A DNA stretch of 43,367 nt from a virus (taxonomy: Duplodnaviria > Heunggongvirae > Uroviricota > Caudoviricetes): the IMG/VR virus record IMGVR_UViG_2579778784_000007, positions 1-43,367 of that record. One strand, given 5' to 3'. Below, piece by piece: positions 11,615-37,072 of the stretch. How positions within the stretch are numbered: position 1 is the stretch's first letter; every line of letters begins with the position of its first letter. Under the pieces are notes generated by a model. That model searched no databases and was not told the origin of the DNA. It saw nothing but the letters and a program-made list of their open reading frames with translations. Both the position numbers and the translations under genes were made by a program.

Positions 11615-11893
11615 ATGCAACTTACAAGTACTCGCAAGAAAGCGAATGCAATTACAAGCAACATCCTGAATCGAATTGCTGTACGTGGTCAGCGAAAGGT
11701 TGCTGACGCGTTAGGAATTAATGAATCGCAAATTTCGCGATGGAAAGACAGCTTCATCCCAAAAATGGGAATGCTTCTGGCTGTTCTTGAATGGGGTGTT
11801 GAAGACGAGGAGTTGGCGGAACTGGCTAAGAAAGTAGCCAGAATGCTGACAAAAGAAAAAGCCCCGAAGAACGGCGAATTCTTCGAGGCCTGA
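11615..11893 (+). CDS. cII: cII transcriptional activator
   Basis: 92 aa from ATG at 11615; SQISRWK...MLLAVLEWGV motif matches lambda CII; the leader resembles the lambda cII leader. Confidence 0.85.
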   Translation: MQLTSTRKKANAITSNILNRIAVRGQRKVADALGINESQISRWKDSFIPKMGMLLAVLEWGVEDEELAELAKKVARMLTKEKAPKNGEFFEA

Positions 11894-11927: not shown

Positions 11928-12089
11928 ATGACAAAACGTCGTAAGAAATACCAGGAAAAAGAAGAGATTCGACACCCTGATTCACCTGAGGGATTAGTGG
12001 TAGCCGCAGCAAATAACAGGGCGTTCGCAGAGCGCCTTGTTGGTGTTTACAGACTAGCCAAAGCAGGAGTGAAACATGGGCGTCGTTAA
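11928..12089 (+). CDS. Small hypothetical protein (53 aa)
   Basis: Not in ORF track; ATG at 11928 with GGAG SD; basic N-terminus MTKRRKKYQEKEE.... Confidence 0.35.
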   Translation: MTKRRKKYQEKEEIRHPDSPEGLVVAAANNRAFAERLVGVYRLAKAGVKHGRR

Positions 12090-12138
12090 GTTAGCTGATT
12101 ACAGGCATAACCCTGTACAACATCAGGAGGCATCCAGT

Positions 12139-13032
12139 ATGGGGTATGTCTCTATACACCGCCAGTTTATGGACAGCAGGCTCTATAAGGACTCTCAGGC
12201 AGTACATCTTTGGCTTCACTTAATCCTCAAGGCTAATCACGAATCTACTGTCGTCAATACGGATATCGGTCCGATAACTGTTGATCGCGGTCAGATGATA
12301 ACTGGACGCCCGTCGCTGGTCAGAGAAACATTCATCCCCGACAACAAAGTTAGGAGCTTATTACGGACTTTTGAGTCGAAAGGGATGCTTAATATTTGCT
12401 CGATTGGGAAGAAATTTAGCCTGTTTACAATCGTTAAATATGACGATTTTCAGGCAAAAAATTGTCCAACGGTTGTCCAACGGTTGTCCAACGCAAACAC
12501 CAGTAATGGCGCGGCTCTCAGCGGAGATTGTCCAACGGTTGTCCAACGGTTGTCCAACGCAAACACCAGTAATGGCGCGGCTCTCAGCGGAGATTGTCCA
12601 ACGGTTGTCCAACGGTTGTCCATAAACAATAATATAAATAATATCTCTAATACTGACGTATTAGAGAGTGCCACAGCAGACAAAAAGTCTGACAAGAAAA
12701 AACCTTCCGTCAGCTGTCAGGATGTTGTCGATGCTTACCACGAAATCCTTCCTGAAGCGCCAAGAATCCGCGCACTGAATGACAAGCGTAAAAACCAGAT
12801 CCGAACGTTCTGGCGCAAAGCCGGAGTGATAACCCGCCAGCTTGACGGGCATGGGTTCACGATGCAGGACTGGAGAAATTATTTGAGCTACGTTGGCGAA
12901 AATTGCCGATGGATGTTCGAAGAGCGCCCAAACCATCAACGCGGAACCGTCTGGCACAAAAAGGGATTTGATTTCCTGCTTAACGACAATACCTACCTGA
13001 AAGTTCGTGAGGGTGAACACGATGACCGATAA
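12139..13032 (+). CDS. Replication initiator / replisome organiser (O-like, P22 gene 18 type) containing origin iterons
   Basis: Start chosen at ATG 12139 (AGGAGG SD, 8-nt spacing); N-terminal HTH-like domain, an iteron-encoded 22-aa tandem repeat, conserved C-terminal domain; immediately followed by a DnaB-like helicase. Confidence 0.72.
   Translation: MGYVSIHRQFMDSRLYKDSQAVHLWLHLILKANHESTVVNTDIGPITVDRGQMITGRPSLVRETFIPDNKVRSLLRTFESKGMLNICSIGKKFSLFTIVKYDDFQAKNCPTVVQRLSNANTSNGAALSGDCPTVVQRLSNANTSNGAALSGDCPTVVQRLSINNNINNISNTDVLESATADKKSDKKKPSVSCQDVVDAYHEILPEAPRIRALNDKRKNQIRTFWRKAGVITRQLDGHGFTMQDWRNYLSYVGENCRWMFEERPNHQRGTVWHKKGFDFLLNDNTYLKVREGEHDDR
12472..12625 (+). repeat. ori: Origin-like iteron array: 11-bp unit TTGTCCAACGG in a 66-bp higher-order tandem repeat, followed by an AT-rich stretch
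   Basis: Read directly: three 11-bp units + 33-bp spacer, repeated twice and partially a third time; adjacent AT-rich segment 12622..12670; embedded within the initiator gene as in lambda ori. Confidence 0.7.
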
Positions 13033-14458
13033 TTTTTATGCGCCGCCCCATAGCATCGAGGCAGAGCAGGCGGTGATTGGTGGATTGCTTCTGGATGATG
13101 ACAGCAGTGAGCGCGTCCGGAAAGTTCTGGCGATGCTGAAGCCTGATTCATTTTACAGCCGACCACACAAAATCCTTTTCGAAGAAATAACCAGAATGCA
13201 CCGGGAACAAAAGCCAGTAGATGGCCTGACGCTTTTCGATGAACTGGAGCGTAAATCGTTAACGGCGTCTGTTGGCGGTTTTGCTTATATCGCTGAGATC
13301 GCAAAGAACACGCCAAGCGCAGCAAACATCGTTGCCTATGCAATGCAGGTTCGTGAAACCGCAATGGAACGCTACGCCATCAACCGCATGACTGAAGCGA
13401 CGGAATTGCTCTATTCCCGCAACGGAATGACTGCAACGCAGAAGTACGAAGCTATTCAGGCGATTTTCACGCAACTGACAGACCATGCAAAAACCGGATC
13501 GCGTCGCGGCCTTCGCTCATTTGGTGAGGTCATGGAAGACTGGGTTAGCGACCTTGAGAAGCGATTTGACCCGTCAGGCGAACAACGAGGAATGAGCACG
13601 GGGATCCCATCGCTGGACAGGATGCTGTCACCGAAAGGTCTGGTGAAAGGCTCTCTGTTTGTCATTGGCGCTCGCCCTAAGATGGGGAAAACGACGCTAT
13701 ACAGCCAGATGGCAATCAACTGTGCAGTGCATGAGAAAAAGCCTGCTCTGATGTTCAGCCTTGAAATGCCAGGTGACCAGATACTGGAAAAACTGGTAGG
13801 GCAGAAGTCTGGTGTTAACCCGAATATTTTTTACCTTCCGGCGACAAATGACGCTGATGACGGCTATCAGGGTGATTACGATGGTGACTTCAACAGGGCG
13901 ATCGAAACAGCCAATCGCTTGAGTGAAATCGACATGCTTTACATCGACGACACGCCGGGATTATCTCTGGCTCAAATCGTCAGCGAAAGCCGTCGAATCA
14001 AGCGAGAAAAAGGATGTGTTGGCATGATTCTGGTCGATTACCTGACACTAATGACTGCTGAGAAGGCCGATCGCAACGACCTTGCTTACGGCATGATCAC
14101 CAAAGGACTGAAGAACCTTGCCAAAGAGCTTGATTGCGTTGTTGTGCTTCTGACACAGCTTAACCGCGCACTGGAAAGCCGAACCAATAAACGCCCATTA
14201 CCAAGTGACTCACGAGATACAGGGCAGATTGAACAGGATTGCGATTATTGGGTGGGGATCCATCGTGAAGGTGCTTTTGATGACAGTGTTCCTCCTGGTG
14301 AAACCGAACTAATCCTTCGTCTCAATCGTCATGGCAATACCGGCACGGTGTATTGCATTCAGGCAAATGGCGCTATTTATGACACAGACCAACAGTCTGC
14401 TGAAATGCGCCGACGTGAACGAGAGGAACCGCAGTCCAAGAAGAAAGGAGGATTCTGA
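13022..14458 (+). CDS. DnaB-family replicative helicase (P22 gene 12 type)
   Basis: 478 aa from ATG 13022; N-terminal DnaB-like domain (IEAEQAVIGGLL), Walker A GARPKMGKTT, Walker B region ILVDYLTLM. Confidence 0.85.
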   Translation: MTDNFYAPPHSIEAEQAVIGGLLLDDDSSERVRKVLAMLKPDSFYSRPHKILFEEITRMHREQKPVDGLTLFDELERKSLTASVGGFAYIAEIAKNTPSAANIVAYAMQVRETAMERYAINRMTEATELLYSRNGMTATQKYEAIQAIFTQLTDHAKTGSRRGLRSFGEVMEDWVSDLEKRFDPSGEQRGMSTGIPSLDRMLSPKGLVKGSLFVIGARPKMGKTTLYSQMAINCAVHEKKPALMFSLEMPGDQILEKLVGQKSGVNPNIFYLPATNDADDGYQGDYDGDFNRAIETANRLSEIDMLYIDDTPGLSLAQIVSESRRIKREKGCVGMILVDYLTLMTAEKADRNDLAYGMITKGLKNLAKELDCVVVLLTQLNRALESRTNKRPLPSDSRDTGQIEQDCDYWVGIHREGAFDDSVPPGETELILRLNRHGNTGTVYCIQANGAIYDTDQQSAEMRRREREEPQSKKKGGF

Positions 14459-36836: not shown

Positions 36837-37010
36837 ATGATAGTCAAGTCAGACGCACCAAAGTACCCTTTGCGCATCCCATTAGAGGTTAAGTTAGCAA
36901 TCGAGAAGTCAGCGAAAGAAAATGGTCGCTCAATAAATACCGAGATGGTAATGCGGTTAGTGGATAGTTTAAGGCGGGATAGTTCTAAAGGTAATCTAGC
37001 AAAAAGTTGA
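36837..37010 (+). CDS. arc: Arc-like ribbon-helix-helix repressor
   Basis: 57 aa from ATG 36837 (GGAGG SD); PKYPLRIPLEVKLAIEKSAKENGRSINTEMVMRLV parallels P22 Arc PQFNLRWPREVLDLVRKVAEENGRSVNSEIYQRVM. Confidence 0.75.
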   Translation: MIVKSDAPKYPLRIPLEVKLAIEKSAKENGRSINTEMVMRLVDSLRRDSSKGNLAKS

Positions 37011-37072
37011 AGCCCCAACTGCGGTAACAGTCAGGGCTTCGTTATCAACAAATCGGCTTAGGAAATATTGAC

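Follow-up and report, generated by a model that had tools for sequence, protein, structure and literature searches.

A rare, recurrent and frame-preserving copy-number polymorphism in the putative in-gene replication origin of a P22-like prophage

The stretch of DNA analysed here (43,367 nucleotides, hereafter the window) is a mosaic P22-like prophage of the E. coli type, with portal, tailspike and gp10-type genes and a sar RNA. It contains an array of short direct repeats, which is very probably the replication-origin iteron array of this Lederbergvirus-type, lambdoid prophage, located inside the prophage's own initiator gene. Origins of this type are already known and have been annotated as putative. 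What is new is a rare, recurrent and frame-preserving copy-number polymorphism of the array, of which the window is one example. An earlier note on this DNA, made from the sequence alone, had proposed a comparison of iteron number in related prophages, and this comparison revealed six iterons in nearly all of them versus nine in the window.

The anatomy of the array is directly visible in the DNA. Tandem Repeats Finder reported positions 12461-12622 as a repeat with a period of 66, 2.5 copies, 100% matches and a score of 324, in line with the two and a half copies of a 66-bp unit described in the earlier note. Three period-11 arrays with the consensus TTGTCCAACGG are nested within the 66-bp array, in agreement with a separate repeat search, and each 66-bp unit is composed of three contiguous 11-bp TTGTCCAACGG repeats and a 33-bp spacer. 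On the plus strand, iteron triple 1 (12462-12494) reads TTGTCCAACGG, TTGTCCAACGG, TTGTCCAACGC and is followed by spacer 1 (12495-12527, AAACACCAGTAATGGCGCGGCTCTCAGCGGAGA), which in relatives is variable in sequence and always 33 bp in length. Triple 2 (12528-12560) and spacer 2 (12561-12593) have the same sequences as triple 1 and spacer 1, and the origin-proximal triple 3 (12594-12626) consists of TTGTCCAACGG, TTGTCCAACGG and TTGTCCAtaaa. Units 1 and 2 have the same sequence, so either of them could be the "extra" copy.

Among the nine iteron positions, six are exact (starts at 12462, 12473, 12528, 12539, 12594 and 12605), and two (12484 and 12550, always the third of a triple) are TTGTCCAACGC, which differs in the last base only, with C for G. 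The iteron at 12616 keeps the first 7 nt (TTGTCCA) and then continues into AT-rich DNA, and this truncated last iteron was found in all relatives too. The 11-bp repeats had been recognized in the earlier note, but their number was given there as about eight, and the interval proposed (12472-12670) extends far enough to cover the AT-rich stretch and the palindrome but starts ~10 nt late, with the array running from 12461/12462. No further iteron copy with one mismatch or fewer was found anywhere in the 43-kb window, where two-mismatch matches occur at chance level (13 in total versus 11.1 expected, with 5 outside the array). The repeat search found no inverted repeat within the array, the iterons being 11-bp direct repeats without an internal dyad, and no Rfam family matched the array region. 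Other ORFs across the array, on the minus strand or in alternative frames (12361-12612, 12371-12625 and 12450-12695), are by-products of the stop-free repeat, and the minus-strand promoter-like matches within each triple are bare consensus matches recurring with the repeated DNA.

The copy-number difference between the window and its relatives was observed directly. All 26 full-length phage matches (891 or 892 bp) contain 1.5 units with six iterons, and the same 1.5 units are present in eight of eight homologues from other genera and in ~136 of the 144 complete E. coli genomes with the gene. Expanded arrays, with a contiguous spacer-triple-spacer and at least 2.5 units, were found in seven of the 144 genomes (5%), and a contracted array with a three-iteron junction (0.5 unit) in one. 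The 957-bp gene is present with intact ORFs in EC190329, GPEC79-13-647, NMBU_W05E18 and M2021-10044802, and in ETEC1739 the gene measures 1089 bp and comprises 4.5 units with 15 iterons, again with an intact ORF. In IMG/VR, among the matches listed, six iterons were found in 111 of the 123 arrays counted, the window and five reference loci being part of this total. Two further arrays among the matches listed have three iterons and an intact 825-bp ORF, and another four show 11-bp slips, with 2, 4 or 5 iterons and a truncated ORF; there was no expanded array among the matches listed. The protein database contains 22 distinct 318-aa sequences, together with many of 296 aa and about ten of 274 aa. 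Initiators of 274, 296, 318 and 362 aa form a length series that reflects iteron number, not different genes.

The repeat count of the window comes from assembled sequence, and assembly errors can occur at tandem repeats this long. Perfectly identical 66-bp tandem units are difficult for short-read assemblers, and exact-pattern scans of IMG/VR, metagenome contigs and species-representative genomes did not find the expanded junction, as would be the case if the extra unit were an assembly artefact and the true sequence had the usual 1.5 units. Assemblers, however, commonly collapse such repeats rather than expand them, and the missing junctions in IMG/VR and metagenome contigs may in part be due to short-read repeat collapse. 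In addition, the 957-bp allele was recovered from several complete E. coli genomes that are independent of each other, and the 1089-bp allele from one more, and one of the 22 distinct 318-aa database proteins is 100% identical to that of the window. An artefact is therefore very unlikely. The locus represents a small VNTR, whose array may be collapsed in short-read assemblies.

The expanded alleles differ in their backgrounds and in private changes shared by their own units. Allele L004 has a private SNP, with CACCGG in both spacers, L134 has the private variant AGTAACGG in both spacers, and L133 has a private SNP, with both distal triples reading CTGTCC. In the sequence flanking the array, the window allele is nearest to a six-iteron allele, with 2 differences, and L005 and L004/L134 are also nearest to a six-iteron allele, with 0 differences. 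Other expanded alleles are 5-12 flank differences away, with the exception of L004 and L134, whose flanks are identical to each other. The different backgrounds and the private SNPs in both duplicated units indicate that the gains were recent and recurrent, and these comparisons suggest at least three independent gains, plausibly six. Because the six-iteron state is conserved across genera, the expansions are young, minor variants. The arrangement of three iterons, a 33-bp spacer and three iterons is ancestral, and the recent gain comprises one 66-bp unit only (three iterons, 22 aa). Thus, the recent change in iteron copy number suggested in the earlier note is borne out by relatives that have exactly 66 bp less, but it applies to a single unit, with 1.5 units being ancestral. 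As the relatives are exactly 66 bp shorter, the comparison did not reveal the same repeat count together with an origin mapped elsewhere.

The extra unit was most likely generated by slipped-strand misalignment or unequal recombination between the ~30-bp identical triples, which are located 66 bp apart. Misalignment of one triple with another predicts both gains (9 and 15 iterons) and loss (3 iterons), and both were seen. Slips within a triple would be of 11 or 22 bp only, so that the frame would be broken, and such alleles were seen with truncated genes. With a period of 11 and three iterons equal to 11 codons, only whole 66-bp changes keep the initiator in frame. This illustrates how a gene-embedded origin is constrained, since only changes of a whole unit are retained and a slip of one iteron leaves the initiator truncated. 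A bolder reading of the same alleles is that the array is a hypermutable, contingency-like prophage locus, in which 66-bp slips would tune origin strength and linker length (3, 6, 9 or 15 iterons), whereas 11-bp slips would frameshift the initiator and switch replication competence off, possibly in a reversible manner. Lysogens would then be heterogeneous in the ability of the prophage to replicate and in the vigour of its replication, and additional iterons could sequester the initiator of a superinfecting phage of the same replication type. We regard this reading as quite unlikely.

The gene that contains the array (12076-13032, plus strand, 957 bp) encodes a 318-aa O-like replication initiator of the Sf6 gene 43/phage L gene 18 type, as identified from its ORF, phrog_345 and DNA identity. 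Its membership in this family is directly evident from a full-length match to phrog_345 ("replication initiation O-like", E 1.9e-85) and from DNA identity of 98.6-99.3%, bar the 66-bp indel, to the genes of Sf6 (gene 43, 99% identity), HK106, mEp234, HK75, HK629, IME10 and others, in agreement with the O-like initiator named as the host gene in the earlier note. Searches of Pfam, NCBIfam and PDB sequences, using both the single sequence and a profile, gave no significant match to the initiator, Pfam remaining without a hit up to E 10, and a Foldseek search of the PDB was likewise without a significant result. The gene order comprises a minus-strand S24-peptidase/HTH (cI-like) repressor, an ORF in the cro position, a CII-family gene, a 53-aa ORF (phrog_1331), the initiator and a DnaB-type helicase. 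The helicase gene (13022-14458, plus strand) is of the P22 gene 12/Sf6 gene 44 type (Pfam DnaB_C, 2.8e-60; DnaB N-terminal domain, 4.8e-31) and overlaps the initiator gene by 11 nt, as in Sf6. Its ATG at 13022 was assigned from the 11-nt overlap of Sf6 genes 43 and 44, and the ORF listing begins at an upstream GTG (13007).

The 66-bp unit corresponds to 22 codons and the reading frame is therefore kept, leaving an intact 318-aa ORF, as anticipated in the earlier note. In the translation, CPTVVQRLSNANTSNGAALSGD occurs twice and is followed by CPTVVQRLSI. An AlphaFold2 model of the initiator, built from a shallow alignment of 24 sequences, suggests an N-terminal domain (~aa 1-128), a linker (~aa 121-213) and a C-terminal domain (~aa 214-313). 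The C-terminal domain (214-313) was modelled as helical with pLDDT mostly 76-86, and the N-terminal region as helix-helix-strand-strand-helix-strand-strand at low confidence (pLDDT 42-59). Residues 121-213 were modelled without secondary structure (pLDDT 26-38), and this segment includes a Lys-rich stretch as well as the parts encoded by the repeats and by the AT-rich DNA (the Asn/Ile-rich peptide). Since the repeats lie within this predicted disordered segment, the extra 22 residues would extend a predicted flexible linker, which agrees with the lengthening of the linker proposed before. The Foldseek hits to winged-helix proteins were weak (E 0.3 or worse), derive from a low-confidence model of the N-terminal domain and do not constitute evidence.

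Downstream, the array adjoins the AT-rich stretch ATAAACAATAATATAAATAATA (12622-12643, plus strand), 22 nt with a single C, which is presumed to be a DNA-unwinding element. Over the 40 nt from 12620 to 12659 the GC content is 0.225 versus ~0.45-0.6 elsewhere in the initiator gene, consistent with the AT-rich stretch that the earlier note had placed after the array. It encodes the Asn/Ile-rich peptide INNNINNI, and its position is conserved across all homologues. Next to it is a perfect palindrome, TCTCTAATAC-TGAC-GTATTAGAGA (12644-12667, plus strand), with 10-bp arms (12644-12653 and 12658-12667) and a 4-nt loop. As single-stranded DNA, its hairpin has a predicted energy of -9.7 kcal/mol (z -4.0). 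The arms covary across genera, with compensatory changes in eight of the ten pairs, and 87% of the cells are paired despite one misaligned row, a level reached in none of 500 shuffles and compared with 29-50% in slid controls. Together with a T-rich run, the palindrome also scores as a weak minus-strand terminator, so an origin role is not exclusive.

The same organization was observed in eight homologous loci from Edwardsiella, Citrobacter, Escherichia sp., Ewingella, Biostraticola, Dryocola, an Enterobacterales MAG and one contig labelled Chryseobacterium, whose proteins share 36-89% sequence identity with that of the window. All eight keep two sets of three 11-bp repeats, separated by exactly 33 bp and with the very last repeat truncated, followed by the AT-rich stretch and the palindrome, with variable spacer sequences and the palindrome loops TAAC, TGAC or AAAG. 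The iteron core shifts with initiator lineage (TGTCCAAC, AATCCAA, GCCAA), and the encoded peptide shifts too. As 11 bp do not make up whole codons, successive iterons fall in three frames, and those of triple 1 are translated as CPT, VQR and LSN. This conservation, observed directly at the DNA level, provides evidence for selection on DNA rather than peptide at the repeats, and the shift of the core with initiator lineage is as expected of sites that would co-evolve with a phage-encoded DNA-binding domain. Among close relatives, nucleotide diversity at third codon positions amounted to 0.004-0.007 in the iterons, below the 0.035 of the spacer and the 0.020-0.043 of the domains, but these values are partly an ascertainment artefact, with loci picked by a pattern and anchors in the region, and were set aside.

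The repeats could instead be a feature of the protein, with the 22-residue linker repeat selected for its effect on the initiator and the DNA repeats having no function of their own. The repeats are translated in frame, and CPTxVQRxSN is well conserved in homologues with at least 64% identity. A period driven by the peptide would, however, be divisible by three, whereas the 11-bp period gives three different tripeptides per triple. Furthermore, the peptides of Ewingella, Biostraticola and the MAG differ (NPKEIQGKSN, RPIKSQETAN), while the three repeats, the 33-bp spacer and the three repeats stay, with a new core. The region is also predicted to be disordered, and neither the AT-rich stretch nor the covarying palindrome has a rationale at the peptide level. 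These observations make selection on the linker peptide highly improbable and favour an array of DNA sites.

The origin module itself has been described in related phages. In the Sf6 record (AF547987), the same repeat block is annotated as a rep_origin ([quoted passage not shown]), the phage L record (MW013502) has a "putative origin of replication" at the equivalent place, and the block has been called a likely origin (PMC8022706). No experimental mapping of this origin family was found in the literature searched, where the wording is "putative" or "likely". Shigella phage Sf6, coliphage HK620 and the Salmonella phages L and ST64T have in common with the window the initiator, the 11-bp iteron TGTCCAACGG, the spacer, the AT-rich stretch, the palindrome and the downstream DnaB-type helicase gene. 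They differ in having 1.5 units, six iterons and initiators of 296-299 aa, compared with 2.5 units, nine iterons and 318 aa in the window, and the iterons of Sf6 and L are imprecise, whereas those of the window are perfect copies. An identical plan, with TGTCCAACGG triples and a 33-bp spacer in the middle of the gene followed by the AT-rich stretch and palindrome, was found in Sf6, phage L and eight genome loci. For annotation, the array marks the probable origin of a very common P22-like prophage family of E. coli, Shigella and Salmonella.

Based on its anatomy, comparative conservation and analogy with lambda, the region is likely to function as an origin. In a mechanism modelled on ori-lambda and iteron plasmids, the initiator would use its N-terminal domain to bind the 11-bp direct repeats TTGTCCAACGG, presented in clusters of three with cluster starts 66 bp apart. 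The nucleoprotein complex may then strain and open the adjoining AT-rich stretch, and the C-terminal domain may recruit the phage-encoded DnaB-type helicase from the next gene. The conserved palindrome beyond the AT-rich stretch would serve as a structural element of the origin.

Alternatively, the array may be a titration or autoregulatory site for the initiator or for a host factor (DnaA, for example), or act as a recombination "boundary", with the true origin elsewhere. The origin function is putative, and the array coincides with a mosaic junction, with homology to the Salmonella ST64T/L type beginning within it and the Dryocola homologue turning to an unrelated C-terminus just past it. 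The core TTGTCCAAC also matches the DnaA box TTATCCACA at 6/9 positions. On the other side, a lambda-like tripartite anatomy is kept across genera, and there is no second cluster of TTGTCCAACGG-type repeats in the window. The core varies with initiator lineage within one bacterial order, which is unexpected for sites of the universal host DnaA, and the DnaA-box idea was rejected on this variation and the match of only 6/9. In addition, phage L genetics (Hilliker 1981, cited in PMC8022706) put the specificity determinants, and by implication the origin, in the replication-gene region. Thus, a non-origin role appears unlikely, and the replication origin is the preferred assignment.

The origin of phage lambda resembles that of the window in its location in the middle of the initiator gene (O) and in its iterons, ~40-bp AT-rich stretch and inverted repeat with a 4-nt loop (PMC5043065, PMC3349717), as well as in the gene order cII - initiator - helicase function. 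Examined with the same tools, the lambda origin showed four iterons, an AT-rich stretch and then an inverted repeat with 12-bp arms and a 4-nt loop. In contrast to those of the window, the four lambda iterons are 18-19 bp long, lie at a spacing of 20-24 bp and are inverted repeats, with one O dimer bound per iteron. The lambda iterons have clear internal dyads, whereas those of the window are 11-bp, direct and contiguous, are grouped in threes and have no internal dyad. An 11-bp direct repeat fits better with monomer-type binding than with lambda-type dimer binding. The helicase step also differs, since lambda P recruits the host DnaB and the module of the window encodes its own DnaB-type helicase. 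Alignment of the initiator family with lambda O by hhalign gave a probability of 0.3% (no homology detected), residues 16-169 in the N-terminal part of lambda O match the phrog_345 profile (E 5.2e-17), and L gp18 has been described, in comparison with lambda O, as "a distant homolog... 15% identical" (PMC8022706). Homology of the initiator to lambda O would be remote at best.

The closest precedent for the copy-number change is found in Stx phages, where a change of iteron number in an in-gene origin likewise lengthens the initiator in frame. Phages 933W and P27 have six iterons compared with four in lambda, and their O is 13 residues longer as a result; good binding in vitro was seen for only four of the iterons, yet plasmid establishment required the extra two (PMC7466680). 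The initiator and iteron family of these phages are different, and their iteron number is a fixed, functionally tested difference between groups of phages, whereas the change in the window is described here at the sequence level, as a rare polymorphism of otherwise nearly identical alleles. The natural series of 3, 6, 9 and 15 iterons in near-identical backgrounds, with linker length changing in step, offers a ready test of the influence of both variables on origin-complex assembly, and the question of iteron number has likewise been raised for Stx phages versus lambda (PMC7466680).

Plasmid iteron origins (P1, F, RK2, pSC101 and R6K) share with the window direct repeats without a dyad, helical phasing and an adjoining AT-rich unwinding region (PMC5043065). 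Their iterons, however, are ~17-22 bp long and located outside the rep gene, and their Rep proteins belong to other families, so the resemblance, as an analogy, is in logic only. The origin in P22 gene 18 has the same genome position as that of the window and a DnaB-type helicase partner (gene 12). It contains four ~20-bp repeats of different sequence, and the P22 protein is only 25% identical to L gp18 (PMC8022706).

The spacer between the iteron triples is exactly 33 bp long in every lineage represented by the homologous loci (L001, L002 and L125-L132), despite free divergence of its sequence among them. The 66-bp distance from one iteron cluster to the next therefore appears to be constrained. 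Slips of 11 bp are present in four IMG/VR contigs, which carry two (L057 and L114), four (L090) or five (L032) iterons. In all of these alleles the initiator ORF is truncated, with the longest frame across the site covering 465-651 nt versus the usual 891, and they are explained either by errors of assembly or by prophage replication genes that are dead.

As judged by sequence comparison, the putative origin and a mosaic joint are located at one place. In megablast searches, the 92-93% match to the Salmonella phages of the ST64T, L and SE1 type starts at query position 452, corresponding to position 12527 of the window, which falls within the iteron array (12461-12622). The part of the initiator gene coding for the N-domain is too divergent from these phages to produce a megablast match. 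In the homologous locus from Dryocola (L131, approximately positions 2343-2470), the N-domain is present together with the iterons, AT-rich stretch and palindrome, and the C-terminal sequence beyond them is unrelated. Perfect TTGTCCAACGG iterons were also found in CACSKA010000001.1 (L126), a 799-kb contig labelled Chryseobacterium sp. 18061, by its label a Bacteroidota genome. This contig bears an initiator gene of enterobacterial type (80% amino acid identity), which probably reflects mislabelling or contamination of the record.

The initiator gene start overlaps by 14 nt with a 53-aa ORF on the plus strand (11928-12089; phrog_1331, a family of unknown function), which is homologous to Sf6 gene 42 and HK97 gp53, occupies the position of orf48 in P22 and is kept in all close relatives. 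On the minus strand, a strong terminator-like hairpin (11859-11891, 14 pairs followed by a T run) overlaps the cII-like gene at its 3' end, which is where lambda-like phages have the terminator of the oop RNA. Each iteron triple within 12461-12622 also contains a bare minus-strand match to the sigma-70-like consensus (TGGACA-18-GACAAT, 9/12), found three times only because the array DNA is repeated. The sar antisense RNA, the hallmark of a P22-type immI (ant) region, was identified on the minus strand at 37005-37071 (RF00262 in Rfam; bit score 70.1, gathering threshold 43).
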